DNA of 62,404 nt from NCBI GenBank assembly GCA_966210575.1, contig CBIHLI010000001.1, positions 1 through 62,404 on the forward strand, given 5' to 3'. Within the stretch, counting starts at the first letter, position 1; each line of letters starts with the position of its first letter. The position numbers were made by a program, and so were the translations under genes. The notes under the pieces were generated by a model. It did no database searches, was not told where the DNA came from, and worked only from the letters and a program-made list of their open reading frames with translations. The stretch is from an uncultured Sphingomonas sp. Lineage in GTDB: Bacteria > Pseudomonadota > Alphaproteobacteria > Sphingomonadales > Sphingomonadaceae. Below, piece by piece: positions 1,713-25,913 of the stretch.

Positions 1713-1787
1713 GGGCGCGTAGCTCAGTGGTAGAGCACTGTGTTCACACCGCAGGGGTCGCAAGTTCAATCCTTGCCGCGCCCACCA
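1713..1787 (+). tRNA. tRNA-Val(CAC)
   Basis: Cloverleaf: acceptor GGGCGCG/CGCGCCC, D-arm GCTC/GAGC, anticodon loop TT-CAC-AC, T-loop TTCAATC, encoded CCA. Confidence 0.97.
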
Positions 1788-1792
1788 CGCCT
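1738..1792 (+). repeat. attL core (3' half of tRNA-Val)
   Basis: ctgtgttcacacc...cccaccacgcct identical to 62350-62404. Confidence 0.95.
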
Positions 1793-1804
1793 TCCTCTTG
1801 ATAT

Positions 1805-3052: not shown

Positions 3053-3207
3053 TGGGACCTCTGGAGTTCTGCAGCCTTCGTCTGGATCAGCTCGCCGACG
3101 CCGATCGCGTTGAGCATGTCGAGCATGTCGGCCTCGAGCCTGATACCCTTACCCTTCTCGGTCTGGCGAGACCAATGGCGAGCGATTTCGGGGAGCTCAG
3201 CGCCCAT
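2803..3207 (-). CDS. Hypothetical protein at the excisionase position, overlapping the int 5' end
   Basis: ATG at 3207 behind GGAGG; Ser/Thr-rich tail is the alternative frame of int. Confidence 0.45.
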   Translation of the reverse strand: MGAELPEIARHWSRQTEKGKGIRLEADMLDMLNAIGVGELIQTKAAELQRSQCLRRSAMNRSTSAEDSGSTRGQGETTKSSGTTSRPDANEQLRRARQRSKPRSPRSTANSSKSRGGSDPAPHATGPSLRTVGG

Positions 3208-3541
3208 CTTGTCCTCCGATGGATGGATCGATCGCCTTTCGGATGCGCTCGATGCCGCCCTCGAGCGTGCGGATCGCGGTCGCCTTCGTCGCTCCGGTCT
3301 CCAGGTCGATCTTGGCATTGATCATGTAGCCGAGCGCCGCCTTCAGCTCCTCAACCGACTCTTCGCTCGTCCCCATCCTAGCGGCGAGGGCGGCATCGGC
3401 ACGTCGGGCCGCTTCCCGAGTAAGTTCAGAGCAGCGCTTCGCGTCGAGCTTATTGATCGTAGCGAACCTTCCCGCGGCTTCGTGCAGGTCCAATGCGGCT
3501 TGTTTCAGCACCTCACGTAGACGGTCAAAGGATGCGGTCAT
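3197..3541 (-). CDS. Hypothetical phage protein
   Basis: ORF coupled by ATGA overlap in early leftward operon. Confidence 0.65.
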   Translation of the reverse strand: MTASFDRLREVLKQAALDLHEAAGRFATINKLDAKRCSELTREAARRADAALAARMGTSEESVEELKAALGYMINAKIDLETGATKATAIRTLEGGIERIRKAIDPSIGGQDGR

Positions 3542-4068
3542 GATCGGATATCCGTCGTCGCATAGGACGGCCGCGCCGGACGGATCGCCTCGGCACAGGT
3601 TCGGAGCGACGCCGCCGCCATCTCAATTTCCACCGCCTGGTCGAAGAAGCCGTGATCGCGGATCCGCCGGGCCACTTCGAGCGACTCGGCGATGGCGTTG
3701 TCGATCGCCCGGGCGCCGCCGGCCAGCGCGTCGTGCCGCTCCTTCGCCGCCAGCTCCGCGGCGCCGAGAGCGTTGCCGGAATATGAGGTGGATACCTTCG
3801 GGGCTTCGTCGCCGCGCCGGCCCTTCCGGAAATCGTCCATCGACCAGGCGATTTCCTCGGCCTCCGCGGACTGCATCAGCTCGAGCTTGCGCTTCTCCGG
3901 CGTCCAGTCGGTCGACGCGAACACGCGCTGGCGGTTCTTCTGGGCCCATTCGCGCACCAGGTCCGGTGCCAGCGGATCACGGCCCCAGAGCGTGAATTTC
4001 GGCTCTTCCGGCGCGGCTTTGGTCTCGGCCAGGACGTCGAAGGCGCCCGGTTGCTGCTTTGTGTTCAT
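3538..4068 (-). CDS. Hypothetical phage protein
   Basis: EPKFTLWGRDPLAP..W motif reminiscent of small phage proteins; coupled overlaps. Confidence 0.7.
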   Translation of the reverse strand: MNTKQQPGAFDVLAETKAAPEEPKFTLWGRDPLAPDLVREWAQKNRQRVFASTDWTPEKRKLELMQSAEAEEIAWSMDDFRKGRRGDEAPKVSTSYSGNALGAAELAAKERHDALAGGARAIDNAIAESLEVARRIRDHGFFDQAVEIEMAAASLRTCAEAIRPARPSYATTDIRS

Positions 4069-4555
4069 TGTTCGGTCCCCTTTGACGGTGCCGGGAGCAT
4101 CGGAAGCATCGCTGGCATCTTTCCGGTCAGATACGCCTCAGCGATCTGTGGCCGCATCCAGTCGCCGACCGTCCCGCCGGTTGGGAGCATGATGTTGGCC
4201 ATGAACTCGTCCTCGAAGACGCTGATGCCGCTCTCGACGGCCTCGAGCTTCGCCTTGATGACGAGCGCCAGGGCGCGCCACTTCTGCTTCACGGCCTGCT
4301 CGTACTGCTTCGCCGCCTCGGTCTCCGATCGGCGATATTCGGTGTAGCCCCGCTTGTACGTCGTGAAGCGCTTCTCATCGCGCGCCGGCAGCGGAAGCAG
4401 GAAGCGGATCATCCGGCCTTCCATCCGAAAGCCGACGACGGCCCCGCCTTCCTGCCAGCCGTACATGAACTGGTCGGCACCGTAGCGGGTCAGAGTCCGC
4501 TCGATCTCCGAACGGCTCTTGTCGCTGCTGACGTCGGTGTTGGCGGCGTACAGAG

Positions 4556-4559
<4 letters not shown>
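4065..4559 (-). CDS. Conserved phage protein
   Basis: YAANTDVS..KSRSEIERTL..YGA and KAKLEAVESGI..FEDEF pattern; ATG at 4559 overlaps upstream stop. Confidence 0.8.
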
Positions 4560-5532
<973 letters not shown>

Positions 5533-5533
<1 letters not shown>

Positions 5534-5775
5534 TAGACGAGCACCCGAGCGATGTGGTTGCAATAGACGGCGACGCACTTCCAGTAGAGGGCCATCGGCG
5601 CCTTGTGGTTCCGCCAGCATTCTTGGGCCCGATGGCGAGCATCGTCTCGGATGGCCACGATGACGCGTCGCAGCCGAGACCTTTCATCCGGGGTGAGTTC
5701 GACCATTGCGAGCTTGGCCGCCGGCAAGCCGAGAACGGGATTGCGAACCTCGCGGCGGGAGGATCGATCAGCCAT
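5533..5775 (-). CDS. Hypothetical protein
   Basis: 80-aa ORF filling the operon with overlapping start/stop. Confidence 0.6.
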
Positions 5776-6130
5776 CAATATAATCCTCGGGATGATCATC
5801 GTCCGGATCGAACGACGGCTCAGGATCCGGCGCCGGAAGCAGCTCAGGCGGGAGCACCGCCGCGACCGAGGCCGGCAGCTGGTACGCTTTCTTCGGCTGC
5901 CGCTTCTGGGCGATCGCCGCCGAGCAGGGCGTGAACTGGTAGATCGACCCGCCACCGATCAGCACCGCCTCGAGCAGCCGGTCGTTAAACAGCGGTTCGA
6001 TCGAGAGGAGCTTCGTACCGAAGCGTTCCACCTCTTCGACGCGGCCGACCAGCGTGCGGTGGCCCAGCACTTCAACGATAGCGTAATCGCCGTCGGGCAT
6101 CTCGAGCGGGATCTGGTCGACGTCAGCCAC
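5768..6130 (-). CDS. Conserved phage protein
   Basis: AIVEVLGH..LVGRV.EVERFG...GGGSIY..TPCS motif. Confidence 0.75.
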   Translation of the reverse strand: MADVDQIPLEMPDGDYAIVEVLGHRTLVGRVEEVERFGTKLLSIEPLFNDRLLEAVLIGGGSIYQFTPCSAAIAQKRQPKKAYQLPASVAAVLPPELLPAPDPEPSFDPDDDHPEDYIDG

Positions 6131-6341
6131 GGCGGTGTCTCCTCAATCTGATGACGCCGCCACAGAGCGAAGTGGCGGGCATGGGCAAGGCAGTGCCGCA
6201 GAACGCGCATTCCGCCGTCACCCGGCCGACGTACCAGTGCGAGCGGCCGCAGCCGGGGCACCAGTTGGTGTCGTTCTCCCGATAGGTGACGTGATAGCCG
6301 CGAACCTTTGCAGGGATCAGGGTGCCCGCCGCGCCGGTCAT
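6123..6341 (-). CDS. Small zinc-ribbon protein
   Basis: CPGC...CAFC pair. Confidence 0.6.
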   Translation of the reverse strand: MTGAAGTLIPAKVRGYHVTYRENDTNWCPGCGRSHWYVGRVTAECAFCGTALPMPATSLCGGVIRLRRHRRG

Positions 6342-7336
6342 GGCTTCGCCTTGAGCCGCTTCTCGGCATTCTCATAAGCCTGGTCGACGGTCGCCCGGAT
6401 ATCATCGGGCATGGCCTCGACGTGCTTGCGGTTGTCAGAGCGAAGGCTGTTGAGGTCCGGCATGTTTTCGACCTTGCCGGCGCGCGCGATGATCTCGTTC
6501 GCCACGGCCTGGGCTGGGTGTTCGCTATCATCGGACTCGTCCGCGGGGGGCTTGTCCTTCGGCGGCAGTTCGCCGGTCTCCTTATCGTGGGGCTCTTCCT
6601 TCCGGATATTGGTCGGCGGTGCGGTTCGGGTGGGCGCCGGCTCCTGTGTGGTCGAGCTCGCACCGGCCTGACGAAGCGGCGGGATCGGAGCCGCTTCGTT
6701 CTCGAGGCTGCCGCCGTCGAGCATCCCGACGTCGCTCTCGTCGTAGATTCCGGCGAAACCGAAGGCGTAGCGAGCGCACTGGATCGTCGACTTGTGGCGG
6801 AGCATGCGCGCCGGCATCTTGTTCCAGGGATCGGTGCCCTGCTTACATTCCGAGAGATATTCGATGATCCGGACCGGGATTGAGCGATCCTTGCGATGGA
6901 TCGTGGTCGCGATGGCGTAGAGATTGCCTTCGGCGTCAGGCATGTCCTCCCACTCGATGCCCTCGAGCTGCGGATGCTCGTTGATGATGCGGATCCAGCC
7001 GTCGATCGAGACCACCGGCACGATTCCGCCGCCCTTCTTCGGGAAGGCGTAGATCTCCTTGGTCAGCGGGTTCAGCCCATAGGCTTCGGAGACCACGAGC
7101 AGCGACGCGAATTCCTCGTTGCTGGCGCCCTGGAACACCGTCGCCATCAGGACCCGCTGAAGGTCCATCGGATCCATCGAGAGGCGGCTGGCCATCTTGT
7201 CGAGGATGGAGACCTTGCCTTCGCGCGCCTTCAGAGCCGGCTCAGCCGGATTGATGGCGGTGCGGGCGACCTGGCGATTGCCCTGAGCTGGCGGGCGAGT
7301 GGTGCCCTGGCGATTGTACGAGCGGTTCTGGGTCAT
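6338..7336 (-). CDS. bet: Single-strand annealing recombinase (Bet/RecT family)
   Basis: GLNPLTKEIYAFP, IVPVVSIDGW, PW..MP.RMLRHK..IQCARYAFGFAGIYD. Confidence 0.93.
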   Translation of the reverse strand: MTQNRSYNRQGTTRPPAQGNRQVARTAINPAEPALKAREGKVSILDKMASRLSMDPMDLQRVLMATVFQGASNEEFASLLVVSEAYGLNPLTKEIYAFPKKGGGIVPVVSIDGWIRIINEHPQLEGIEWEDMPDAEGNLYAIATTIHRKDRSIPVRIIEYLSECKQGTDPWNKMPARMLRHKSTIQCARYAFGFAGIYDESDVGMLDGGSLENEAAPIPPLRQAGASSTTQEPAPTRTAPPTNIRKEEPHDKETGELPPKDKPPADESDDSEHPAQAVANEIIARAGKVENMPDLNSLRSDNRKHVEAMPDDIRATVDQAYENAEKRLKAKP

Positions 7337-7350
7337 TTGTCGCTTCCCCT

Positions 7351-7722
7351 TCAAAATGGAACTTCAGGATTGGTCGCAGAGGCCTCTTCGTGGCGGTACT
7401 CCTCGATCACCCGGCGTACCGTGGAGACGGCGCGCTCCTTCTCGGCCTCACCAGAATTCAGATGGCCGACGAAATCGTAGATCGCCTCGAATTCAGGATA
7501 GGTGAGCACGATCGAGCCGGTGGCATCGTCGCCGAGACGGCGGACCTTTCCCTTGGTGACACGCGCCAACCACAGACGAATTTCGCGCAGTCCGTTTTCC
7601 AGCGCCTGGTGCTCGCCGCAGCCTTCATCGATTGCAGGCGGCCGAGCTGCGGCAAAGCCCTTGAACCACCAGATGCCATCGGCCAGGACGCCAAGCGCGT
7701 GCTCGACTGATTTGATCATCAT
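7351..7722 (-). CDS. Hypothetical protein
   Basis: ORF between exonuclease and bet, ends in EVPF. Confidence 0.55.
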   Translation of the reverse strand: MMIKSVEHALGVLADGIWWFKGFAAARPPAIDEGCGEHQALENGLREIRLWLARVTKGKVRRLGDDATGSIVLTYPEFEAIYDFVGHLNSGEAEKERAVSTVRRVIEEYRHEEASATNPEVPF

Positions 7723-8429
7723 CGGCCCGCTCCGAACCGGCGGTCCAATTCGCGCTGAGCGTTCCATTTCAGATCCTCTTCCATGGTGACCTGGCGGACC
7801 ATCCAGTCGAGGAAGCCGGTCTCGACCTCTTCCCATGGGCGATCGCGGAACTTGCCGATCGTGCAGCGCGGCAACAGGCGCGGCTCGCGGGTCCAGCCGA
7901 CCATCAGCTTGCCCGTCGCGCCGGCGTCGAACAGGGCGCAGAGGATATGGGCGGTGACATAGGTGTCAGGCGCCGCCCGATGCGGCGGCATGCTCAGCTC
8001 CGGGTCCGGAGCGATGAGCCCCTGATCCTCGAGCCAGTAGCGAAGCGTCTGGTTCTGATGGTTGGGTGCCTCCGGCCAGATCCGGAGCGCCGCCTTCAGG
8101 GTGCAGATCAGCCAAAGCTCGAGATGCTTGGCGATCCACTGGAATTCGAACTCGACGTTGTGCGCGGCGATCGCGTCGACACCCGCTGCCTTCGCATCCG
8201 CTATCAGCCCGGCCGGGTTGAACGGCGGCAGGCCGGCAACCTCCTTGGCGGTGATATGGTGGATGGCGCGGGTCTCAGGCGGACTGGAGCCAACGCCGCA
8301 GAGCCAGGAAACCGGCTCAAAGACCTGGCGGGCCTCGAGATCGACGTCGGTATAGCCGACCTCGATCACCTCCCCCTCGGGCGGAGCGAGACCCGTCGTC
8401 TCGAAATCGATGACACGGAGCAACGTCAC
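7719..8429 (-). CDS. DEDDh 3'-5' exonuclease (ExoX-like)
   Basis: IDFETTG, AHN..FE, HRAAPDT motifs; GKFRDRPW C-terminal domain. Confidence 0.9.
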   Translation of the reverse strand: MTLLRVIDFETTGLAPPEGEVIEVGYTDVDLEARQVFEPVSWLCGVGSSPPETRAIHHITAKEVAGLPPFNPAGLIADAKAAGVDAIAAHNVEFEFQWIAKHLELWLICTLKAALRIWPEAPNHQNQTLRYWLEDQGLIAPDPELSMPPHRAAPDTYVTAHILCALFDAGATGKLMVGWTREPRLLPRCTIGKFRDRPWEEVETGFLDWMVRQVTMEEDLKWNAQRELDRRFGAGR

Positions 8430-9211
8430 CGGACGCGCACCCCGACATCCTCATAGATCCGGACGCCCTTGATCTCGCGGGTGCCGGAGCGAATGAGGGC
8501 GTTCACCGCCTTCTGGACTGCATCGCGGACGTTTTCGTTTGACGAGACCGCCTTGAAGGCCTTGTTCCAGTCCTCGATCTCGCCCTTCCACACTTTCTGA
8601 ACCGAGGCGACGGACCCATAGTCGCCGCGGACGCTCAGCGTCGGCTTGGGCGGAGGCGGCGCCGGGGCGACCGGTTCAGGATCCGGAACGGGCTCACCCG
8701 CCGCACGGGCCTTCTCGGCTTCCTCCTGAGCGATGCGCTTGCGTTCGCGCTGAGCTTCGATCTCGCGTTGGCGCTGCTGTTCCTGCTCGCGTAGCTTCTG
8801 GCGGGCATAGGTCTCGATCTTGCCTCGCACCGACTGCAGTGCACCGTTGAGCCTGACGCTGTGGCGCTTGGCGGCCTCGTCGACCGCCCGGCCGGCCTCG
8901 AGATAGGGTCGCTTGACCATCTCGCGCTCGCCGTCGACCACCTTCGCGGCGGCCGAGATCTGACGCTGCAGATCGGCGCAGCGCCCGGCGGTCTCGTCAT
9001 CGTTGGCGATCGCTCGTTCGGAAGCCGCAATCAGGGCGTCGATCCGATCGATGAATCCTTCACGCTGACGCAGAGCATCGTCAAAGGCGGCGACCGCATC
9101 GATCGCCGGCGTCGGCCGGTTGTCAGAGCGAGTCACCACGCCATCGGAAGCGGGAATGTCGGCGACGGGCGCGAAGAGCGGATCGGCCTTCCTGGATGCA
9201 ATCTTGGTCAT
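8426..9211 (-). CDS. Coiled-coil phage recombination-module protein
   Basis: KRPYLEAGRAVD and REIKGVRIYE motifs. Confidence 0.7.
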   Translation of the reverse strand: MTKIASRKADPLFAPVADIPASDGVVTRSDNRPTPAIDAVAAFDDALRQREGFIDRIDALIAASERAIANDDETAGRCADLQRQISAAAKVVDGEREMVKRPYLEAGRAVDEAAKRHSVRLNGALQSVRGKIETYARQKLREQEQQRQREIEAQRERKRIAQEEAEKARAAGEPVPDPEPVAPAPPPPKPTLSVRGDYGSVASVQKVWKGEIEDWNKAFKAVSSNENVRDAVQKAVNALIRSGTREIKGVRIYEDVGVRVR

Positions 9212-9230
9212 TTCCCCATGGACTCCTTGT

Positions 9231-9611
9231 TCAGAACGGAAGCGGTGCGGACAGAAGGTCGATCGGTCGGTTCGGATTGGCTTGCGGGCTGTGCGGAGCA
9301 TTCTCCCGGCCCCAGCGCTCGAGACTGACGAGATGATCGTGCTCGGCCTCACTGATCCGTTCGCAGGCGCACGCCGGCCAGACGCGGTAGAGATCGATTG
9401 GCCGGCCGTTGACCTCGGCCTGCCAGTTCCAGCGCTCGAGCAGCTCGCCGGTGTCGGGATCGCGGACCTGGCCCCAGAAGATGCGAAGGCCGACCGGATG
9501 GCCGCCGCGCGCCAGTTTCCACCGATAGAAGCCGGCGGTCGGGACGTCCGGATCCACGCTGCCCGGAAGTAGCGGACGGCGCTCCGAATAGTTGAGCGCG
9601 GCGCGGGCCAT
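9231..9611 (-). CDS. Hypothetical phage protein
   Basis: P.AGFYR.KL.RGG..V..RI motif; coupled to ACP gene. Confidence 0.7.
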   Translation of the reverse strand: MARAALNYSERRPLLPGSVDPDVPTAGFYRWKLARGGHPVGLRIFWGQVRDPDTGELLERWNWQAEVNGRPIDLYRVWPACACERISEAEHDHLVSLERWGRENAPHSPQANPNRPIDLLSAPLPF

Positions 9612-9853
9612 CAGCCGCGGCCCAGCTTGCGATTGACGAGCGCGATGACGTGGCCGACGTTCTCGAGGCTGGCGCCTTCGTCGTCGGTGATCTTGATCTT
9701 GAACTTGTCCTCGAGCTTCACCAGCAACTCGATCGGATCGAGGCTGTCGCCGTTGAGATCCTCGAACGTCGACACATAGGTGAAGCGCCTGGTGCCGAAC
9801 TGTTTGGCGATGACGTCGCAGACCTCGGGGGCGGCGGATTCGATATCGGCCAT
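9611..9853 (-). CDS. Acyl carrier protein-like protein
   Basis: 80 aa, FEDLNGDSLDPIELLVKLEDKFKIKITDDE with the phosphopantetheine Ser (DSL). Confidence 0.85.
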   Translation of the reverse strand: MADIESAAPEVCDVIAKQFGTRRFTYVSTFEDLNGDSLDPIELLVKLEDKFKIKITDDEGASLENVGHVIALVNRKLGRG

Positions 9854-10023
9854 CAGAAAAGCACTCCAGTCCAGGTAGCGACGATCGTCGCCAGACCGGC
9901 CGCCCAGGCGACAGCGATGATTGCCCAGCTCGGCTCAGCGAAATCGTGGCAAAGCGCGGATTGCTCAGGCTCCAGGCAGCGCTGGCATGGCGCCGGCTCG
10001 CGGCAGGCGGGGCAGAAGCTCAT
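9853..10023 (-). CDS. Small Cys-rich membrane protein
   Basis: CPAC..CQRC plus C-terminal hydrophobic helix; overlaps both neighbours. Confidence 0.5.
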   Translation of the reverse strand: MSFCPACREPAPCQRCLEPEQSALCHDFAEPSWAIIAVAWAAGLATIVATWTGVLF

Positions 10024-10208
10024 GCTCGCCACCTCCGCTCGAGGGCGGCATCCCAGCCTTCCTCGAACCCGATGCGCATGGCGCCGGCATTGGAGGATCC
10101 GAGAGCGCGGCCGGCGTAGGAGCTGGCGGAAAAGCGCCGAAATGCCTCGGCGCGCTCCTGGTCCTCGTCCTCGACGGCGGCCTGATGATGGCAAGGGCGC
10201 AGGCTCAT
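10020..10208 (-). CDS. Hypothetical small protein
   Basis: ATGA-coupled ORF. Confidence 0.45.
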   Translation of the reverse strand: MSLRPCHHQAAVEDEDQERAEAFRRFSASSYAGRALGSSNAGAMRIGFEEGWDAALERRWRA

Positions 10209-10534
10209 CGGCTGCGCCTTTTCGGGCGGCCGCCTTGGCAGCTGTTGCACATGACCGTCTCGTCCTTCTTGGCGAGACGGTGATTGGCATGAAGGTCGAT
10301 GAAGCGGCCGCAGAGGTATCGCTCCGCAGTGCCAGGAGCGTGGGAAACATATGCCCGAGCTCGATGCTTCTCGGGCCGTCCGCGGCGTGGGAGCCGACTA
10401 CGCCACTTGCTGACGCGCGACCCCAGCCTGGGTCGCGGCTCGCTTTCGACGATCCTGGAGGGAATAGAGGCGAAACGGACGCCGGCGAGAAGCCCAGCGA
10501 CCGCAGCGGCCATCATTCGTGAACGATTGAACAT
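10205..10534 (-). CDS. Hypothetical basic protein
   Basis: TGATG overlap with the stop of the Tas-like gene. Confidence 0.5.
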   Translation of the reverse strand: MFNRSRMMAAAVAGLLAGVRFASIPSRIVESEPRPRLGSRVSKWRSRLPRRGRPEKHRARAYVSHAPGTAERYLCGRFIDLHANHRLAKKDETVMCNSCQGGRPKRRSR

Positions 10535-11625
10535 CAGGCGCGCCTCCATGCTGCCCAGAGGTCCCGGAGCAGGCGTTTCTCGATAAACCGCTTGGCGCGG
10601 GCGTGGATGATGCAGTCGCGCTCGACGCCAGCGGCGATTTCGTGGGCGCGACGGTCGATGTAGAGCTGCCCGTACGGGCCGACGGCGTGGCGTTTGCCGT
10701 CCTTCGGATTACGGATCTGCTGTTTCAGGATGGACTCGCCGATGTTCCACATCAGGGAGCGGCGGCGAGGGACGTAGCCCTGAAGGATCGCGGCATCGCC
10801 TGCGACGCGACGCTGGCGCTCGCCATCGAACACCGCCAATCCCATGCGCTTCCAGAGCGCAGAGACGGTCTTGAATTCGCCTGGGCCGATGAGGCGATCC
10901 GCATCGTCAAGCGCTCGAGCTGCGCATTCGCCGACGATCATAGCCAAGAAGCGCGTTGAAAGACCGGGCACGCCTGCGGCCCATCCAGCGACGGGCAACT
11001 GCCCGCCGAGCATGGCGAGCTTCTTCTCTTCGATCGCGATCGCCTGGACCAACGGCTCCATCGCGGCGTGATACGGCGCCAGCCAGGCCATCACTTCCGG
11101 GGTGGGCGCGCGGTACAGCTTCGCGCCGGCCTCCTTGTCGCCGCCGCTGACGCGACGGCACACGGACATCGCCTGAAGCAGGACCCGCTGATGCGCTTGA
11201 CGCAGATCGTCGTAACGTCGCTTGGTTTCGCTGATTTCGCCGATGAGAGCGGAATATATTTGGGCAGCGCCGAGAATATGGCCCTCATCGGCTCCGCCAG
11301 TGGCGGAAGGGGTGGTCGCAGGCATGGGGGACCTGGCTTTCGACCGCTTAGAGGCCTGCGACCTCGCGCCGGAGCGCGAATTAGGTGCCCGAGGCGCGGT
11401 CCCACCGGGTGCCGGAGTCATTGAGGCCTCGGGCTGCACAGCCTTGCGGCTGCGCGATTTCTGGCGGGGCGCTCCAGGACTGGTTTTCGCTGCTGACCCG
11501 GCCCCGCCCACGGCCGAAGCCGCGATCTCCTGAACTTGGTCGAAGCTACGGTCGAAATGCTGCCGCACCCGCTCCGTCGACACCGCGGCCGCTTTTTCGA
11601 ATTCGCCGAAATTCTCAATGAGCAT
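10534..11625 (-). CDS. Nop/IS110-related RNA-binding domain protein, TasA-like (no nuclease domain)
   Basis: Coiled-coil then VPGLS..LAMIVGE, F.TVSALWKRMGL, Y..RR..E, HARAKRFIEKRLLRDLW; no RuvC/DEDD, HNH or IS110 catalytic SG seen; GGAGG RBS before ATG 11625; associated guide array. Confidence 0.82.
   Translation of the reverse strand: MLIENFGEFEKAAAVSTERVRQHFDRSFDQVQEIAASAVGGAGSAAKTSPGAPRQKSRSRKAVQPEASMTPAPGGTAPRAPNSRSGARSQASKRSKARSPMPATTPSATGGADEGHILGAAQIYSALIGEISETKRRYDDLRQAHQRVLLQAMSVCRRVSGGDKEAGAKLYRAPTPEVMAWLAPYHAAMEPLVQAIAIEEKKLAMLGGQLPVAGWAAGVPGLSTRFLAMIVGECAARALDDADRLIGPGEFKTVSALWKRMGLAVFDGERQRRVAGDAAILQGYVPRRRSLMWNIGESILKQQIRNPKDGKRHAVGPYGQLYIDRRAHEIAAGVERDCIIHARAKRFIEKRLLRDLWAAWRRA
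11239..11524 (-). ncRNA. Stem-loop TIGR-like guide RNA array, 4 units
   Basis: Units at 11463-11508, 11387-11434, 11314-11363 and 11239-11292, each a 7-11 bp stem enclosing CCN-N9-YG-N4-CCN-N9-YG; period 75/72/73 nt; small hairpins between units. Confidence 0.85.
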
Positions 11626-12187
11626 TGGCTTCCTCCCACAGCTTGGCGAGAGTGGCCTCGCTAAGGGTGCTGCCAATCGGAGCGTCAACCGGCCCGTTCT
11701 TTTCGGCCGCGGCGGCGACAGCTTCCTGCCAGCGTGACTGGAGAGCCATCGAACGAGAAGCGATCTTGTAACTTGAAGCACTCTCCCGGACCTCTGCGGG
11801 AGTGGCGTTGCGGATCGGCTTTCCGCCGTAGATCGGCATGTCCATGAAACGGCGGAGCTCGTTGCTCATCGCCTCCGCCAGACCGGGACTCGATCGCGCG
11901 ACCGAAGCAGATTTGATGATGGACTCGCGGCGCGCTCGAAGAACCGCGCGCACCTGGTCTCGGCACCATTGCTCGACCACGGTCGCGAGATGCTCTCGCA
12001 TCAGATCGGGAGATGCGAGCAGCTTGCGACTCAGCGCGGCAGCTGCGGCGTCGATGTCGTCGTTGGTATCTTCCAGCGCAGCGGCGGCGAGCTCTCGCGC
12101 CGTGTCCAGCGGCGCGGCGGCACGCTTCTGGGCTTCAGGCGATGTTTGGCCGCGCCGGCTGGACTCCAAAACTTGTGTTGCTGACAA
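11615..12187 (-). CDS. Hypothetical protein, putative Tas partner; first gene of leftward operon
   Basis: TTG start behind GGGGAG; stop overlaps start of the Tas-like gene; contains a guide unit. Confidence 0.75.
   Translation of the reverse strand: MSATQVLESSRRGQTSPEAQKRAAAPLDTARELAAAALEDTNDDIDAAAAALSRKLLASPDLMREHLATVVEQWCRDQVRAVLRARRESIIKSASVARSSPGLAEAMSNELRRFMDMPIYGGKPIRNATPAEVRESASSYKIASRSMALQSRWQEAVAAAAEKNGPVDAPIGSTLSEATLAKLWEEANAH
12104..12164 (-). ncRNA. Single TIGR-like guide unit
   Basis: gtccagc(c)ggcgcgg-CCA-aacatcgcc-TG-aagc-CCA-gaagcgtgc-CG-ccgcgcc-gctggac. Confidence 0.8.
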
Positions 12188-12212
12188 TTCGCATCTCCCC
12201 TTGATCGGGGGA

Positions 12213-12255
12213 GACTGCTACAAAGGTTTTGTTACAGGGTCAACAAGATTTTTGT
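12213..12255 (-). promoter_or_regulatory. PL-like promoter with two ACAA-N5-TTGT operators (12220-12232, 12243-12255)
   Basis: Minus strand TTGACC-17-TAGCAG; palindromes match those between cI and cro. Confidence 0.7.
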
Positions 12256-12261
12256 TAAGCG

Positions 12262-12723
12262 CTAAAGCCCAATGCTGGCACAGCCGGTTTCGAAGATATC
12301 TATTGCTCGGTCGGAGCCGGTCAGATCAAAGGTGAGATCGACGTTCGCGCCCCGATAATCGGTTGCTCTCACAGCCATGGTGCGCGACCGCGCGATGGCT
12401 TCTATGAGCGGACCGGCATCGTTCAGAAGAACAACAAAGCGACCAGTATGGCCCCAATTCGCCGCGATCGATGGTTGCTGATCGAATCGAACAAGCACCT
12501 CGCGAAGGATAGGCCTTCCCCCCAGATGACGTCCCATGTCGACGGTGATCTGACGCCCGCCACTTCGGCTGCCTGAATCGCACACGATAAGCATCGCGCC
12601 CGGCGGGTTGTTCAACGTGACGGAGACCTTTCTGGCGTCCGTCATTGGGTCTGAGTCGTGAGCTATGTGCCACCGATCGGCAGGGGCGGCCGAGGACATT
12701 GCTAAAAGTGCTGCAATAATCAT
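12262..12723 (-). CDS. Exported protein co-transcribed with repressor
   Basis: Signal-peptide-like N-terminus, DPMTD motif; ATGA overlap with cI stop. Confidence 0.7.
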   Translation of the reverse strand: MIIAALLAMSSAAPADRWHIAHDSDPMTDARKVSVTLNNPPGAMLIVCDSGSRSGGRQITVDMGRHLGGRPILREVLVRFDQQPSIAANWGHTGRFVVLLNDAGPLIEAIARSRTMAVRATDYRGANVDLTFDLTGSDRAIDIFETGCASIGL

Positions 12724-13394
12724 CTGTAACGCCTTCCAAACCAAACGACGCGGCCCTTGATGTCGATTTCCTCGAGGAGACGTTCTTCGGGATCGTATCG
12801 AGGGTTCTCGCTCATCACCTTCACTTTTACCGGATCCGAGCCGTATATACGCTGAAGGTATTTGACGACATAGCCATCACCTTCCCACAGGCAAAACGGT
12901 CCAGGCTGAGCCAGGCTGCGCTTCCTCGTATCGATCAGCAGCTGGTCCCCGTCCTGAAAGACCGGCTGCATTGAGTCTCCGTCGATCTCGATGAGCAACA
13001 AATCCGCGGGCGGTACATTGAGCTCTCGCACAAGGCTGCCAGAGAAGGCGCGCTTCTGAAGATCGCCTTCGCCGCTGCCTGGCCCGCCAGCGCCGGCATA
13101 AGTCGGCAGCATATCAACCATCACCAGATCATCGCCGGTGTTGATTGTCAGGATCGGGTCGTGGTGCGTCTCTTCGTCCGCTGCCTCGATCGCCTTCCTC
13201 ACATAACGCATCCATTGGGGCACGCGCTTCGCGTGCGGCTGCTCGAAATTCGAGACAGACTGTTGCTTCAGCTTTATCTCGACGCCTTCCTCGAATGCGA
13301 AAGCCCGCGCTCGATTGGCAACGTCAGCAGTCGACCACCCTAAGCGGTCTCGCTCCTCGCGGAGCCAGCGTTTTACCTCCTCAACGTTCTCCAT
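12720..13394 (-). CDS. cI: CI-like repressor (HTH + S24 peptidase)
   Basis: N-terminal HTH (QQSVSNFE), AG cleavage-site candidate, GDSMQP and VVK catalytic Ser/Lys; divergent from cro. Confidence 0.9.
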   Translation of the reverse strand: MENVEEVKRWLREERDRLGWSTADVANRARAFAFEEGVEIKLKQQSVSNFEQPHAKRVPQWMRYVRKAIEAADEETHHDPILTINTGDDLVMVDMLPTYAGAGGPGSGEGDLQKRAFSGSLVRELNVPPADLLLIEIDGDSMQPVFQDGDQLLIDTRKRSLAQPGPFCLWEGDGYVVKYLQRIYGSDPVKVKVMSENPRYDPEERLLEEIDIKGRVVWFGRRYR

Positions 13395-13407
13395 GCCGCT
13401 TTGAGGT

Positions 13408-13466
13408 ACAAAAGATTTGGGGAGGCCGCTCCTACAAAACTCTTGTTGCCTGCACAAAACTATTGT
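13408..13466. promoter_or_regulatory. OR-like region, three ACAA-N5-TTG(T/G) operators
   Basis: 13408-13420, 13434-13446 and 13454-13466 between divergent cI and cro. Confidence 0.75.
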
Positions 13467-13479
13467 AGCTGAGCCGGTC

Positions 13480-13707
13480 ATGAGCCATGAAGCCCTGAAG
13501 CGTGCGCTCGCCAAGGCAGACGACAATCAGTCGAAATTTGCCGAAGCGATTGGCACCTCTCAACAGCGCATCTCGTATCTGCTGAAGAACGAGAAGCCGC
13601 TCCCTGCCGAGCTGGTCCTACGGACGGAAGAAGTGTTCGGGATTCCCCGTCACGAGCTGCGTCCCGACATCTATCCAGCGCCTGAAGCCGTGAAGTCGGC
13701 AGCATGA
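13480..13707 (+). CDS. cro: Cro-like (YdaS family) regulator
   Basis: NQSKFAEAIGTSQQRIS HTH and ELRPDIY signature. Confidence 0.88.
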   Translation: MSHEALKRALAKADDNQSKFAEAIGTSQQRISYLLKNEKPLPAELVLRTEEVFGIPRHELRPDIYPAPEAVKSAA

Positions 13708-13895
13708 AGCAGGGGTCTGTCTCCATCGCCGAAGCGATTCGCAGCTCCGTCGAGACCGGCATCCTGGCTGGCCTGACCGAGGCGACGAAGGCCGTCTTGT
13801 GCGGCGATTCCGAAATCCCTCCGCCCGCGGCACCCCTTTCCCGCGAGCGAGCCGATGGGGGAGTGGGCCAGCGCTCCCCCAGAGGTTCCGCCTGA
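13704..13895 (+). CDS. Hypothetical small protein
   Basis: ATGA overlap with cro. Confidence 0.45.
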   Translation: MKQGSVSIAEAIRSSVETGILAGLTEATKAVLCGDSEIPPPAAPLSRERADGGVGQRSPRGSA

Positions 13896-13931
13896 TGGCG
13901 GTCTGTCGATCCCTTACGCAGGGAAGGTCTG

Positions 13932-13972
13932 CGTGGCGTCGGGGTGCTTCGGCTCCCGGCGCCACGGCTTTT
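13932..13972 (+). terminator. Putative tR-like hairpin terminator
   Basis: cgtggcgtcggg...cccggcgccacg stem with TTCG loop, followed by a short T tract. Confidence 0.45.
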
Positions 13973-14012
13973 CGCTGTGGGTCCTTTCATGGTGTGGGGA
14001 GGCATCTAACCG

Positions 14013-14495
14013 ATGGTGCCTGACCCGTCAGTGTCGAATCCTCGGCTGATTTCCACGGATGCCTTCAGAGAGGCGGTCTATCACGCGATCAGGCTTTTCG
14101 TCGGTCGCGGCCGTGCCTGGTCTGTCGAGGACGTTGCGGTCGCGCTCAACGCCGCCGACCACAAGATCACGGCTAGAGCTGTCCAGAGCTGGATCGCATC
14201 GGACCCTATCGAGCGTCGGACGCCGGACACCCCGATGTTGGGCGCGCTCTGCCAGCTGCTCGGTCCGTCATTCACGGCCAAGTGGCTCGGACCGCTGGGG
14301 CAGGGGGCCCATAGCCTTTCCGCCGTTACCGGTTCGCCGGCCCAGATCATCGCCGCGCTGATGGACGGATCGGCACAGTTCGCCGTCCGCGGGATCGACG
14401 GGGTGTTCTGCAATATCGACCGCGGCGACCTCGAGACGGTGGCCGACAAGATGATCGAGATCCTGACGCCCTTCTCGTCCAAGCAGGGAGCTTGA
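14013..14495 (+). CDS. CII-like HTH regulator
   Basis: Position after cro; HTH-like segment SVEDVA...TARAVQSW. Confidence 0.6.
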   Translation: MVPDPSVSNPRLISTDAFREAVYHAIRLFVGRGRAWSVEDVAVALNAADHKITARAVQSWIASDPIERRTPDTPMLGALCQLLGPSFTAKWLGPLGQGAHSLSAVTGSPAQIIAALMDGSAQFAVRGIDGVFCNIDRGDLETVADKMIEILTPFSSKQGA

Positions 14496-17080
14496 CCATG
14501 GCGAGGGGAGGGGAGCCCCTGGTTGTGGAGACCAAGGTCGCCGAGGATCCATACCGGGCCTTTCTCGAGGCGAAGATCGCGACGCCCCCAAGTCTCGGTC
14601 TGCCGTGTGAGCTGGACGAGGTACGATCCCACCTGATCGACGGCCGGCCGATGAAGGATCATGTCCGCCACATCGTGCGCTGGGCGGTCCAGGGCGGGCG
14701 CCGCGGTATCTTCGCCAATTTCGGCCTGCACAAAACGATGATGCAGCTGGAGATCGGCAGGATCATCACCACAAAGACCGGCGAACTCGGCCTGATTTGC
14801 CTGCCGCTCGGCGTCCGGCGTGAATTCATGATCGATGCCAGTCTGCTCGGGACGCCAGTGGCGTTCGCTCAGAGCGATCGCGAAATCGATGCTCTGAAGC
14901 TGGACGATCAGATCGAGCCGCCGCTCGTGCTGACCAACTATGAATCAGTGCGCGAGGGCAAGATCGACCTGTCTCGCTTCGGCTGGGCTTCGCTCGATGA
15001 GGCCAGCGTGCTCCGCTCCTATGGCTCGAAAACCTACCAGGAATTCCTGCCGCTGTTCGAGGGCGTGAAATACCGTCACGTCGCGACCGCCACTCCAAGC
15101 CCGAACCGCTACAAGGAGCTGATCCACTATGCCGGCTTTCTCGGCGTCATGGACACCGGGCAAGCGCTGACACGCTTCTTTCAGCGCAACAGCGAACGCG
15201 CGAACGACCTTACGCTCTATCCGCACAAGGAAGCTGAATTCTGGCTCTGGCTGAACAGCTGGGGCGTCTTTCTCCAGCGGCCGTCGGACCTCGGCTTCTC
15301 CGACGAAGGATATGATCTCCCGCCGATCACCGTCCGCTATCACCAGGTCGCCAGCGACATCTCTGACGCCGGTACCGAGAGTGATGGGCAAGGCCGGCTG
15401 ATACGTGATGCGGCGATCGGCGTCGTCGATGCCGCCCGCGAGAAGCGCGCGACGCTGTCGGCGAGGATCGCGAAAGCGAAGGAAATCGTCGGCGCCAGTC
15501 CGGACGAGCACTTCCTCATTTGGCACGACCTTGAGGACGAGCGCCGAGCAATCTGCGCCGAGATTTCCGGCGCGAAGGCCGTCTATGGCTCGCAGGAACT
15601 GGACGTACGCGAAGAGATCATCGGAGACTTCGCGGAGGGCCGGCTACCGATCCTCGCTGCCAAACCGGTGATGCTCGGTAGCGGCACGAACCTTCAACGC
15701 CACTGCCACCGCGCGATCTTCGCCGGCATCGGCTTCAAGTTCAACGACCTGATTCAAGCAATTCACCGACTGCACCGCTTCCAGCAGGCCAAGCCGGTCG
15801 AGATCGACATCATCCACGCCGAGACCGAGACCGAGGTGCTGCGCACGCTGCAAAACAAGTGGCAGCGGCATGAAGAGCTCACCGGCCGAATGAGCGAGAT
15901 CATCCGGGAGTTCGGCCTCAACCACGATGCCGCTGCCGAGACCCTGAAGCGGTCGATCGGATGCGAACGCTCGATGGAGGAAGGCGCCTTCTGGTCGATG
16001 GTCAACAATGACTGTGTCGACGAGGTTCGGCGTATGCCGGACGACAGCGTCGACCTGGTGGTCACGTCAATCCCCTTCGGCAATCACTACGAATATTCGG
16101 CCAGCTACAACGACTTCGGCCACACCGACGATCACGATCACTTCTTCGCCCAGATGGATTTCCTGACGCCGCAGCTGCTCCGGATCCTGAAACCGGGCCG
16201 TATTGCGGCGGTGCACGTCAAGGACCGCATCAAGTTCGCCAGCGTCACCGGGATGACCCGGCCGACGGTCGAGCCGTTCCACGCGGACACTATCGCCCAT
16301 TTTCGGCGCCATGGCTTCGGCTACATGGGCCTGCGCTTCATCGCCACCGACGTGGTGCGCGAGAACAATCAAACCTACCGCCTCACCTATAAGGAGCTGC
16401 GGAAAGACAGCACGAAAATGGGATCCGGCTCACCGGAATTCCTGCTTCTATTCTTCAAGCTGCCAACGGACCGGAGCAATGGCTACGCCGACGTGCCGGT
16501 TACGAAGGACGCGGACGAATACAGCCTCGCCCGCTGGCAAATCGATGCCGATGCGCTTTGGAGGTCGAGCGGCAATCGACCTCTGACGACGGCGGAAATG
16601 GCATTGATGCCGCCCGACACGCTGGCGCGAGTGTTCCCCGCCTGGTCGATCCAGCAAGTCTATGATCACGAGGCGCATGTCGCGATCGGCGAAGGGCTTG
16701 CGGCGCGGAAGGCACTGCCAAAGACCTTCTCGGTACTGAAGCCCGGATCACTGCGCGATGACGTCTGGACCGACGTCTCAAGGATGCGAACGCTCAATAG
16801 CGAACAGGTACGTCGCCGGGTCGAGCAGCATATCTGTCCTCTCCAGTTCGACATCGTGGACCGTGCGATCAGGCTTTACTCCAATCCTGGCGAGACTGTG
16901 TTCGATCCGTTTGCCAGACTCGGCACCGTACCGATGCGGGCCGTGAAGCTCGGTCGGCGCGGCGCCGGCGTCGAACTGGATCCCAAATCCTTTCGGGATG
17001 CCGTCCATTATTGCCGAGAGGCTGAAGCCAACCGAGCAACGCCCAGCCTCTTTGATCTGATCGACGCGGAGGCCGCATGA
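14492..17080 (+). CDS. SNF2-like helicase fused to N4/N6 DNA methyltransferase
   Basis: GLHKT, LDEAS, TATP, QAIHRLHRF helicase motifs; VTSIPF, HICPLQ, DPFARLGT MTase motifs. Confidence 0.9.
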   Translation: MTMARGGEPLVVETKVAEDPYRAFLEAKIATPPSLGLPCELDEVRSHLIDGRPMKDHVRHIVRWAVQGGRRGIFANFGLHKTMMQLEIGRIITTKTGELGLICLPLGVRREFMIDASLLGTPVAFAQSDREIDALKLDDQIEPPLVLTNYESVREGKIDLSRFGWASLDEASVLRSYGSKTYQEFLPLFEGVKYRHVATATPSPNRYKELIHYAGFLGVMDTGQALTRFFQRNSERANDLTLYPHKEAEFWLWLNSWGVFLQRPSDLGFSDEGYDLPPITVRYHQVASDISDAGTESDGQGRLIRDAAIGVVDAAREKRATLSARIAKAKEIVGASPDEHFLIWHDLEDERRAICAEISGAKAVYGSQELDVREEIIGDFAEGRLPILAAKPVMLGSGTNLQRHCHRAIFAGIGFKFNDLIQAIHRLHRFQQAKPVEIDIIHAETETEVLRTLQNKWQRHEELTGRMSEIIREFGLNHDAAAETLKRSIGCERSMEEGAFWSMVNNDCVDEVRRMPDDSVDLVVTSIPFGNHYEYSASYNDFGHTDDHDHFFAQMDFLTPQLLRILKPGRIAAVHVKDRIKFASVTGMTRPTVEPFHADTIAHFRRHGFGYMGLRFIATDVVRENNQTYRLTYKELRKDSTKMGSGSPEFLLLFFKLPTDRSNGYADVPVTKDADEYSLARWQIDADALWRSSGNRPLTTAEMALMPPDTLARVFPAWSIQQVYDHEAHVAIGEGLAARKALPKTFSVLKPGSLRDDVWTDVSRMRTLNSEQVRRRVEQHICPLQFDIVDRAIRLYSNPGETVFDPFARLGTVPMRAVKLGRRGAGVELDPKSFRDAVHYCREAEANRATPSLFDLIDAEAA

Positions 17081-17343
17081 ACGTCGCCGATCCAGTCGAC
17101 CTTGCCGTAAGCCGCGCCTGGGAGCGAGGACAGGACAAGCCGAAGCCTTCCGCCAGCGCCAAGATGCTCGAGCAGGCCATGTCCCGCGAGGTGGGCGTCG
17201 ACCCGATGCGGGAGGACGTCGCCGAGATCATCTACAGCTTCGACCAGGAGGCGATTGAGCAGCCCTGGCGGCGTCTCGGGTCGACCCGGCGCCAGACCTA
17301 TTACGACATCGCTGACGCGGTGATTGCGCGGGTGCGGAAATGA
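17077..17343 (+). CDS. Hypothetical protein
   Basis: Coupled ORF. Confidence 0.6.
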   Translation: MNVADPVDLAVSRAWERGQDKPKPSASAKMLEQAMSREVGVDPMREDVAEIIYSFDQEAIEQPWRRLGSTRRQTYYDIADAVIARVRK

Positions 17344-17702
17344 TCGCTGAGCTCGCCCTCCTCCTGTTTCTACTGCTGGCCGCTCACGCCCTCTGCGATT
17401 TCGCGCTCCAGCCCGCCCATGTTTCCACCGCCAAGAGGCCGGGCGGTAACGCGTCGGTGCCGTGGTTGCTGGCGATCGGCGGCCATTCGCTGATCCACGG
17501 CGGCGCCGTCGCCTTGCTCGTTCTGCCCTACGTCGGTGCGGCCGACGCCCTTGCTCTCGGCATCGCTGAGACGAGCCTCCATGCCGCGATCGACATCTCC
17601 CGGTGCCACCGGATTATCGGCACGAAAACCGACCAGGCCGCCCATGTCGCATGCAAGCTTCTCTGGGTCTGGATCATCGCCGGATCGGGGGCGCTTCCAT
17701 GA
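17340..17702 (+). CDS. DUF3307-like membrane protein
   Basis: AH..CDFALQ, HSLIHG, H..ID, DQAAH motifs. Confidence 0.8.
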   Translation: MIAELALLLFLLLAAHALCDFALQPAHVSTAKRPGGNASVPWLLAIGGHSLIHGGAVALLVLPYVGAADALALGIAETSLHAAIDISRCHRIIGTKTDQAAHVACKLLWVWIIAGSGALP

Positions 17703-18304
17703 GCAGCCGCCAGCTCCAGCAATATCTCGAGGCTCGCGCGGCGGGCGCGACCGTCGAGGTCGCCGCGGCGGCATCCAGGATCAGCCTGGGCGAGGCCAAG
17801 CTCACCGAGGCCGCCATCGCCCGGCACGAAATCGATCTGCCGTCACCGGAAATTACCACCGAAGGAGAGAGTGAAATGCCCAGAGGAAAGCCAGCCGAAG
17901 CGCTCGAAAACGCGAGCGAGCATCTCGGCGCCGCCAATGATCAGGTCGAACAGGTTATGACGCCGGATTTCGAGCGTGGTCTCAACATCCTGCGTTCTGA
18001 TCTTAATCCGCTCACCGAGGAAAGCGCCAAGATCCGCGGCGACCAATCGGCGGCGTGGAAGATGATCGAGAAGGACTGCCACCTCAACAAGAAGGGCGCG
18101 AAATTCGTCCACTCGCTGATGCGGATGGATCCTGAAATTCGCGATGACGTGCTGCGTACCGTCTATGGCCTGATGAAGGCGGCGAAGATCGGCATCAGTC
18201 GCGATCTCGTCGACCAGATGGGCAAGGGCGACGCGCCCGACATGCCGACGAGCGACGAGAAGGCAACCGAGCCTGGCAATCTCGCTTCCATCGCCGCCGA
18301 ATAG
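17699..18304 (+). CDS. Hypothetical protein with GapR-like C-terminal region (alternative start 17876)
   Basis: Helical pattern EE.AKIRGD....K...K..HLNKK.....MRMD; second RBS AAGGAG before ATG 17876. Confidence 0.55.
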   Translation: MSSRQLQQYLEARAAGATVEVAAAASRISLGEAKLTEAAIARHEIDLPSPEITTEGESEMPRGKPAEALENASEHLGAANDQVEQVMTPDFERGLNILRSDLNPLTEESAKIRGDQSAAWKMIEKDCHLNKKGAKFVHSLMRMDPEIRDDVLRTVYGLMKAAKIGISRDLVDQMGKGDAPDMPTSDEKATEPGNLASIAAE

Positions 18305-18318
18305 TTCGGCGCGGCATC

Positions 18319-18867
18319 ATGTTCGTAGCGTTGGATCTCTCGATCCGGAGCACCGGCTTCGCTTGCTGGTCGGAAGGCCAGGAGCAGCCGGTGTCCGGGT
18401 TGTGGCACCTCGCCAGCGGTCTGGAATGGGCGCCGCGCGCCTTTGTCCGCCTCCAGCGCAACCTGATGGACCTTCATCGGGTCACGAAGATCGCTTCCAT
18501 CATCTACGAGGATTCGCTTCCGCCCGGGAAGCTGCACGGACAGACCAATCTGGCCACGCTCAGGGCGGCCGTCAGCCTCACCAGCCACGTCGAGAGCTTC
18601 GGCGAGGCGATCGGCGCCAAGGTACGCGCCACCAATCAGTCGACCTGGCGCCGGCATTTCCTCGGCGCGATGAAGAGAGGCACCAAGACCGCCGACCTCA
18701 AGCACATGGCGAACATGCGCTGTCGCGAGCTGGGGTTCCGGCCGCAGCGCCATGACGAGGCCGAGGCCCTGGGGATGCTCGATTTCGAGCTGCATCTCGC
18801 CGGCCTGACGCCGCCGTGGCGGCAACAGCATGTCCTTCAGACGCAAATGGTCGGAGGGCCGCGGTGA
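18319..18867 (+). CDS. RuvC-like Holliday junction resolvase
   Basis: ALDLS..STGFA, YED, WRRHFLG, HDEAEALG. Confidence 0.8.
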   Translation: MFVALDLSIRSTGFACWSEGQEQPVSGLWHLASGLEWAPRAFVRLQRNLMDLHRVTKIASIIYEDSLPPGKLHGQTNLATLRAAVSLTSHVESFGEAIGAKVRATNQSTWRRHFLGAMKRGTKTADLKHMANMRCRELGFRPQRHDEAEALGMLDFELHLAGLTPPWRQQHVLQTQMVGGPR

Positions 18868-19595
18868 TCGAGTCATTCCGCCACCACAGCTCACTCCAGC
18901 GCGGCGTCATGCTCGATTGGCTCCGTCATTGCGACGAGACTGGAGAACCGCATCCGACCGATGCTGCGATCGCCGACCGCTTCTGTTTCAGCGGCATCGA
19001 GGCGGCGCGGACGCTCCTCGCCGATCTGGCCGACCGCGGCGAGATCTGCATCAGCTACAACGGCCACGGCCGGGAGATCGTTGTCGCACCCGCGAAGGCG
19101 CATCGGCAGATCGGCTCAGAGCGGCCTCTTGCCAGGAGCGTGAAGAAGCCGAAGCGCCCTCGTCCCGATGTCGACGCGACAGTGGCGAAGATCATGAAGA
19201 TCGTCCGCCGTGACCCGACTGCGCCCCGTCCTGAGCCTGAGGTCCAGAAGGCTCGGCCGCCCGTCATTCCCGCGAAGCCGAAGGAGCCCGTCATGGGGAA
19301 CCGGATCCAGTTGAACATCTGTCCATCACCAGAGCTGTTCGAACGCATCCGTGCGCTGGCGCAGGCCGACGGGCTGATGCCTGGGCAAAAGGCGCGGGAC
19401 ATGCTGGAGCGTGCGATCAATCAGCCGGCCGTGATTCCGGAACCGATGGTCGAGCTCACCGGCAAGCCCAAGGTTAGAGCCGAAGTGGCGCGCGCCGCGA
19501 CGGAGGCCAGGATGGAACTCCACGATTTCTGCAGCAAGTTGCTCGACCTCGGTCTCGAGGTCTGGGTCCGCCGGCGGATCGAGGGCGAGATATGA
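18864..19595 (+). CDS. Putative DNA-binding protein
   Basis: N-terminal winged-HTH-like segment and internal RHH-like segment. Confidence 0.55.
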
Positions 19596-19942
19596 TCGAC
19601 AGTCCCATGCCCATCGCGACGATCCAGGAGCACGTCGCCCGATCATACCAGGTACCGGCGCGCGAGATCCGCAGCGCCCGCCGTTCCCGTGCGATCATCG
19701 AGCCGCGTCACGTCGCGATGTACCTGTCAAAGGAGCTGACGCCGAGCTCGCTGCCTCATATCGGCCGCTTCTTTGGCGGCCGCGATCACACCACGGTTCT
19801 CCACGCGGTCCGGAAGATCGAGGATCTGCGCCGCCGGACGCCGGAGCTGGACGGACGGATCCGGGCGCTGATGGCCGAACTCAATCCGCCGGAGCCTGGC
19901 GCCGAGGTTCAGGACGATCTTTTCATCGAGGGGGACCGGTGA
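19592..19942 (+). CDS. DnaA C-terminal (domain IV) protein
   Basis: [30 protein letters not shown]. Confidence 0.92.
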
Positions 19943-22916: not shown

Positions 22917-23070
22917 GCGAGATGGTTTGGCCCGCTACAGGGATATCAGACCTCGCCACTGAAGATCCGAGGCACCCCGCTTTCGGTGAAGTCGTAAGAC
23001 ATGGAACAAACGGTGGTCGCGCGCAGGGATGCGCGGGTCGGCTGCCTCAACAGTTAGCAAGGGGCCATTG

Positions 23071-25843: not shown

Positions 25844-25913
25844 GGGCCGCCTGCGTTCTAAGGCGGGGTGGGGAGGCCGAGTAGCTGGCCGTTTCTTCTC
25901 AAGGAGAGAAATC

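Follow-up and report, generated by a model that had tools for sequence, protein, structure and literature searches.

The window, the whole 62,404-nucleotide stretch that was analysed (contig CBIHLI010000001.1 of an uncultured Sphingomonas sp.), carries five stem-loop tigRNA units on its minus strand. Four of them, U2 to U5, lie in the 5' part of the open reading frame (ORF) of tasA, and the fifth, U1, lies in a partner gene upstream of it (Table 1). Both genes belong to a prophage that adjoins the host lon gene and encodes a repressor, a RecT-like protein, helicases, a terminase, a portal, a capsid and an endolysin; its layout is lambdoid.

Table 1. Coordinates of the features in the window
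Feature	Position	Strand	Description
Prophage	1738..62404	.	between 55-bp direct repeats at the tRNA-Val(CAC) 3' end; 60,612 bp as a circle
tasA ORF	10534..11625	(-)	363 aa; ~120-aa low-complexity array-coded tail, then coiled coil + Nop (10537-11259)
U5, stem-loop tigRNA unit	11239..11292	(-)	11-bp stem including one G-U; core 11250-11281; in frame in tasA
U4, stem-loop tigRNA unit	11314..11363	(-)	9-bp stem; core 11323-11354; in frame in tasA
U3, stem-loop tigRNA unit	11387..11434	(-)	8-bp stem; core 11395-11426; in frame in tasA
U2, stem-loop tigRNA unit	11463..11508	(-)	7-bp stem; core 11470-11501; in frame in tasA
Three short linker hairpins between U2 and U5	~11436-11455, 11365-11378, 11293-11307	(-)	predicted fold
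Partner gene	11615..12187	(-)	190 aa, all-helical; upstream of tasA, stop overlaps tasA ATG by 11 nt
U1, fifth tigRNA unit	12110..12157	(-)	8-bp stem; core 12118-12149; inside the N-terminus of the partner ORF
Two ACAA-N5-TTGT boxes (12220, 12243)	12215..12257	.	likely CI operators over leftward promoter
cI-like repressor gene (HTH + S24)	12720..13397	(-)	
Three ACAA-N5-TTG(T/G) boxes	13405..13468	.	between cI and cro
cro-like gene	13480..13707	(+)	

Guide units and the TasA protein

The core of a unit is defined by the 32-nt pattern CCN-9-YG-4-CCN-9-YG, taken from the available text of Faure et al. (2025; PMC12045711), and all five units conform to it (5/5). In U2, for example, box C reads CCG and CCA and box D reads CG in both places. 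An earlier, sequence-only reading had placed four units on the minus strand, and U2 to U5 lie there letter for letter as it described them, with stems of 7, 8, 9 and 11 pairs. It had also held that these stems differ in sequence yet all pair, and each outer stem does form when its unit is folded alone. With U1, whose spacers are AACATCGCC and GAAGCGTGC, the array has five different stem sequences of 7-11 pairs. Folded singly, the five units give z values of -0.8 to -3.2, and the fold of the whole 421-nt array region gives z -2.2. No Rfam family was found in positions 10000-14000.

The bare core has 48 matches in the window against a mean of 30.9 per dinucleotide shuffle, but in just 5 of these is the core flanked by a stem of at least 4 pairs, and these five lie within 920 nt on the minus strand. 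The possibility, raised with the original proposal, that the motif is equally dense in shuffled sequence is not borne out: units with stems of at least 7 pairs arise at 0.06 per shuffle, so the motif is not at chance level, and two such units within 300 nt occur in 0/200 dinucleotide shuffles. The remainder of the host genome (G000, 1.41 Mb) holds two lone matches with 7-bp stems. U1 to U5 are a real stem-loop TIGR array, far above chance.

On sequence comparison and a predicted structure, the product of ORF 10534-11625 is identified as TasA, a Tas Nop-domain protein that lacks a nuclease. The AlphaFold model of its last 241 residues (pLDDT 95.7) consists of a coiled coil and a Nop domain only, and the first coiled-coil residues are encoded by the 3' half of U5. 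Neither an RuvC nor an HNH domain was found in this model or, by curated Pfam match, in the tail. The ten best Foldseek matches of the model are TasR and TasH structures (TM 0.59-0.66), among them TasR 9MTY (E 2e-6, TM 0.66), and IS110 structures follow at ranks 11-16 (TM 0.45-0.48). A profile of 60 TasA homologues finds 9MTY as its sole PDB match (E 1.3e-18). The NCBIfam model TIGR_Tas_endo matches TasA with E 3e-15 and a score of 56.6, below the family cut-off of 100. In the model the chain stops two residues past the last helix and thus has no C-terminal Y/H processing loop, a loop that stem-loop Tas clades also lack according to the available text of Xu et al. (10.64898/2026.09.09.750476). 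G000, which is 64% complete, contains one tasA copy, and 300 genomes of the host family yielded no TasA of the window's clade. Table S1 of Faure et al. (2025; PMC12045711) lists proteins that share the C-terminal motif of this TasA in at least 53 places, so the clade had already been sampled. The locus almost certainly belongs to the stem-loop TIGR-TasA systems.

Homologous loci, the partner gene and the reading frame

The comparison covers 194 loci: the best 80 of 121 viral loci, all 33 genome loci, the best 80 of 206 metagenome loci and the window. Sense-strand units of 9+9 geometry stand near tasA in 163 of the 194, two or more of them in 145, with a strand bias of 995 sense units against 4 antisense. 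De-duplication leaves 804 distinct units in 136 arrays, of which 642 have CCA as their first and 611 as their second box C, and 765 have a loop of 4 nt. Scans for the geometries 8+8, 10+10, 8+9 and 10+9 gave 5-21 matches; those for 9+8 and 9+10 gave 125 and 647, which we read, collectively rather than match by match, as register shifts of 9+9 units. Under the pattern used, tasA stands without a unit in 17 of 120 loci (12 with the partner gene; for example L010, L012, L020 and L029), and these loci may use other box letters or loop lengths. Both spacers share one GC profile in the 804 units, with low values at positions 1-2 and high ones at 3 and 6. In 120 of 136 arrays the spacers have a lower GC content than the locus, a weak pointer to foreign targets.

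The spacers vary from array to array while boxes and geometry hold, which disposes of the concern that they might be invariant across homologous loci; the window's 10 spacers are all absent from the other 135 distinct arrays. This variation beside constant boxes, together with the adjacent Tas Nop protein, supports the initial view of the hairpins as dual-spacer guide units. Near-identical copies of the window phage have the same array-coded residues and identical spacers, and copies from 4 sequencing runs of 2 studies differ at three places, none inside a unit, so there is no sign of fast turnover. Over longer distances the picture is different at the protein level, to which this comparison is limited: in a gap-free alignment over U3-U5, the sister protein P0006 (61% identical) keeps the residues encoded by stems and linkers and differs in those encoded by spacers. 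Spacers thus appear to be replaced in place within old stems. Among named carriers of TasA, Erythrobacter and Novosphingobium come closest, which points to a sphingomonad-like host. The cassette is also found in isolate genomes such as Erythrobacter sp. NFXS35, and the cultured temperate phage RHph_X2_25 of Sinorhizobium (MW960032.1) has tasA, the partner gene and six units, which makes the cassette testable in a native host.

A homologue of the partner stands near tasA in 110 of the 120 loci that have at least 2.5 kb upstream. When viral loci were searched with the partner instead, all 16 matches held TasA, 14 of them already in the tasA set; tasA or the partner occurs in 0/73 loci of kin phages. 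In a few loci the partner lies downstream of tasA (e.g. L044 10940-11707, L166 1019-1570). No convincing match to the partner was found in Pfam and PHROGs (57 members each), in NCBIfam (4 members), among PDB sequences, with Foldseek in the PDB and BFVD, or with VIA-align (best Z 5.2, rmsd 2.7, 57 aligned). In the ESM Atlas it falls into unnamed viral clusters (0.90). By these comparisons the partner is a conserved gene of no known family and a near-obligate neighbour of tasA, and the absent matches do not demonstrate a new fold. Its predicted structure has two helical lobes linked by a long helix (pLDDT 85); residues 1-30, where U1 lies, have pLDDT 52-61. In 15 of 149 cases the partner ORF, as called, contains a unit. 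The idea of a ParB-like protein was rejected, since 0/57 partner sequences match ParB in Pfam or PHROGs. The partner was not found in the available portions of the TIGR-TasA literature, and figures S13-S14 of Faure et al. (2025; PMC12045711) may show it.

In 76 of 112 loci all units up to 700 nt upstream are crossed by an open TasA frame; the other two frames reach 15 and 28, in a count that left out loci whose match began after residue 25. An in-frame ATG stands at the stop of the upstream partner in 49 of 93 distinct loci (overlapping the stop in 45 of the 49), including loci with arrays up to 1,016 nt long, and is missing in 44. Since the partner stop overlaps the tasA start in about half of the loci, the array is likely translated as an N-terminal tail of TasA. 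Intragenic stem-loop arrays have already been reported (Xu et al., 10.64898/2026.09.09.750476); translational coupling of a partner and tasA was not found in the available text of that article.

Prophage setting and proposed mechanism

Contigs of 60,642 bases with different start points were recovered from two runs and fit a circularly permuted 60,612-bp circle. Such permuted forms indicate that the prophage is likely active. Just upstream of the partner, a leftward promoter, TTGACC-17-TAGCAG, was seen by eye, and a consensus scan did not list it. Positions 12000-14000 hold 5 operator-like boxes against 0.05 in shuffles, with a pattern that was defined after the sites had been seen. In 23 of 70 loci a repressor-like ORF, scored with a small home-made profile, ends no more than 3 kb upstream of the partner, versus 2 of 56 further out. 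Read by the CI-operator logic of lambdoid phages, the cassette likely opens a CI-repressed early operon.

Other genes of the prophage deserve mention. Beside attL, a 415-aa ORF (1805-3052 (-)) has no Pfam, PHROG or NCBIfam match; it has what we take, by eye, to be tyrosine-recombinase-like motifs and is likely a divergent integrase. A phage-borne acyl carrier protein gene (9611-9853 (-)) shares the leftward operon with tasA. Between cI and the leftward promoter, a 153-aa ORF with a signal-peptide-like sequence (12262-12723 (-); PHROG 1848, a family with no assigned function) could be an exclusion factor expressed in the lysogen. In a 798-aa ORF (52396-54792 (-)), DNA polymerase III beta-clamp domains lie in the first third, and the long rest has no annotation.

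We consider it probable that TasA, armed with guides from the array, carries out RNA-guided silencing of rival mobile elements, by binding and not by cutting, early in the lytic cycle. The parts of this proposal differ in strength. Non-cutting DNA binding and repression by TasA is highly probable; that rival mobile elements are the main target is a view towards which we lean slightly. CI would repress the leftward promoter, so that the partner-tasA mRNA would be made on infection or induction and not in the quiet lysogen. Judging from the overlapping stop and start and the open frames, translation of tasA would be coupled to that of the partner and would run through the array, giving a disordered tail. 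By analogy with published stem-loop systems, the hairpins would be cut out as single guides, and a TasA dimer would hold boxes C and D while spacer A pairs with one target strand and spacer B with the other. Bound at such 18-bp DNA sites without cutting them, TasA would block transcription; guide-dependent repression without cutting has been shown for MbTasA in the available text of Xu et al. (10.64898/2026.09.09.750476). Excision of guides from the mRNA would remove the tasA start, which would likely create a feedback loop.

The partner would be a dedicated accessory, most likely in guide maturation, loading or spacer exchange. A bolder version, in which it matures guides or swaps spacers in place within the translated array and the cassette is a self-reprogramming repressor, is doubtful. 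If true, temperate phages would switch on a two-gene self-reprogramming repressor against rivals early in lytic growth, the reading frame of the array would couple guide content to TasA synthesis, and the partner would be the missing machinery of stem-loop TIGR systems. The group that discovered these systems names, in the text available, the maturation of stem-loop tigRNAs, the acquisition of spacers by TIGR arrays and the natural targets as open questions. For the first two, the near-obligate partner, which belongs to no known family, is a direct candidate; as to the third, the cassette's likely control by CI tells when to look for it.

Targets, alternative readings and known systems

The sequence-only reading held that targets could be predicted as spacer A followed by the reverse complement of spacer B. 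This order fits TIGR geometry and would be the only one to give 3' overhangs of the TasR type, TasR cuts being described as leaving such overhangs (Faure et al., 2025; PMC12045711). It led to no credible target in the sequence sets searched, as follows. The same reading had seen no full 18-mer match in the window, and this was confirmed, the best match in that order having 3 mismatches. The window and G000, searched together in three orders with gaps of -2 to +2, yield nothing better than 2 mismatches. The search that had been proposed for host genome and phages gave no exact host match, and the exact matches in IMG/VR (raw counts, with no control pattern: U5 3, U4 0, U3 0, U2 9, U1 3) fall in unrelated phages. 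Judged from their ORFs, the carriers of these 15 matches to U1, U2 and U5 are marine, actinobacterial, P2-like and other unrelated phages, a scatter expected from the shortness of an 18-mer.

No exact target was found in 61-301 relatives per unit. The 73 kin-phage loci hold 0 exact targets (best 3 mismatches), a weak test because these loci are only distant mosaic relatives. Family-wide, none of 374 units matches exactly anywhere in 5.5 Mb, and the true order gives no more near matches than wrong orders do. Nor are spacers copied from the phage's own genes above control. Since neither the phage itself nor the searched chromosomes of relatives hold a target, elimination, together with timing, points to variable foreign DNA as the target class. 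The predicted target of U5 (11250-11281 (-)) is AT-rich and contains a 5-4-5 inverted repeat, resembling an operator or promoter.

The same TIGR-TasA machine might instead be used to silence host genes, such as defence genes or regulators, during infection. TasR and TasA can repress an E. coli chromosomal gene (available text of Xu et al., 10.64898/2026.09.09.750476), the operon of the cassette is likely early, and G000 lacks roughly one third of the host's genome. In relatives, scored against a reversed-pattern control, near-matches exceed the control for U3 (2 mismatches, 6 of 101 genomes versus 0) and U1 (1 mismatch, 4 of 101 versus 0 and 10 of 301 versus 3). However, U2 (1 mismatch, 2 of 101 versus 4), U4 (2 mismatches, 3 of 61 versus 12) and U5 (1 mismatch, 0 of 301) are at or below it, and neither G000 nor any searched relative has an exact match. 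Three of the six U3 matches are the same carA codons, and this lead was dropped as G000's own counterpart of the carA contig has no site with 4 or fewer mismatches. A U1 match in a relaxase, seen in one genome, was likewise rejected, and the 14 U1 matches fall in unrelated genes. Moreover, the fact that every array has spacers of its own fits variable targets better than conserved host genes, and host silencing is unlikely.

The guides could also regulate the phage's own lysis-lysogeny genes by partial pairing. The cassette adjoins the immunity region, the first part of cro agrees in 17 of 18 letters with U1's loop plus spacer B (13488-13505 (+) versus 12121-12138 (-)) and in the same reading frame (EAQKRA versus EALKRA), and spacer A of U4 matches cI exactly at 13340-13348 (+). 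Yet the second spacer fits neither site. Across 59 loci, matches to the own and to another locus are equal (16/18 at best, in 2 of 390 units each), lone 9-mers number 70 versus 63, and in 40.5 kb of the 68.8-kb RHph_X2_25 genome its six units come no closer than 4-5 mismatches. As other loci have no such excess, the U1-cro match is probably due to chance, and self-regulation is very unlikely.

It is equally improbable that the guides are stale, belonging to a real TIGR-TasA system whose targets have drifted or gone and being kept by reading frame and RNA structure. The failure of every search to return a target would fit, as would the fixation of spacers among near-identical copies from 2 studies, but boxes, 9-nt spacer lengths and stems are intact in 5/5 units, as are the conserved residues of TasA, and missing targets are to be expected where few close relatives of the phage are in public collections. 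Finally, an IS110-type transposon with the hairpins as bridge RNAs, to which PHROG 4285 ('transposase', E 1e-13) and the lower Foldseek ranks might point, is extremely improbable and largely refuted by the absence of a DEDD/RuvC domain (the array encodes the 120 residues ahead of the coiled coil, for which curated Pfam gives no match), by the higher rank of Tas structures and by units that are many independent single loops and not one two-loop RNA. One copy is present in the 64%-complete G000, and no insertion-excision joints were seen in 4 runs.

Stem-loop TIGR-TasA has been described, in the texts available, for PlTasA (Faure et al., 2025, PMC12045711; Guan et al., 10.64898/2026.08.11.744272) and for BlTasA and MbTasA (Xu et al., 10.64898/2026.09.09.750476). 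As far as those texts go, the window resembles these systems in hairpin units whose boxes C and D enclose two 9-nt spacers set 9 nt apart, in stems that are palindromic and variable and replace edge repeats, in a coiled-coil/Nop protein that stands alone, has a disordered N-terminus and lacks a C-terminal processing loop, in units placed within a coding frame, and in a location in phages. Taken on their own, the four units represent an ordinary member of the family described in 2025. What differs from stem-loop TIGR-TasA as those texts describe it is the partner gene, likely coupled to tasA, conserved, not ParB-like and itself holding a unit, and the setting in a likely CI-controlled early operon.

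The tasParB-tasA operons, in the available text of Faure et al. (2025; PMC12045711), resemble the window in having a second gene upstream of tasA and guides between or around the two, but they combine a dual-repeat array with a ParB-like protein, whereas the window has a stem-loop array and a partner that is not ParB. The TasR (9MTY) and TasH nucleases share the Nop/coiled-coil fold and the box C/D guide logic; in contrast, the window TasA lacks RuvC and HNH and has stem-loop guides instead of 36-nt dual repeats. IS110 with its bridge RNA has a related C-terminal fold and a tandem two-strand guide geometry, while the window TasA has no DEDD domain, is single-copy and is served by many separate single-loop units. 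A CUU motif at the stem base is frequent in published stem-loop TIGR systems, as far as the available texts describe them, whereas the window stems have no clear CUU at their bases: among its five units, CTT stands only near U2 (5' side) and U4 (3' side). Among the 804 units, CTT lies within 20 nt on the 3' side in 29% and on the 5' side in 18%.
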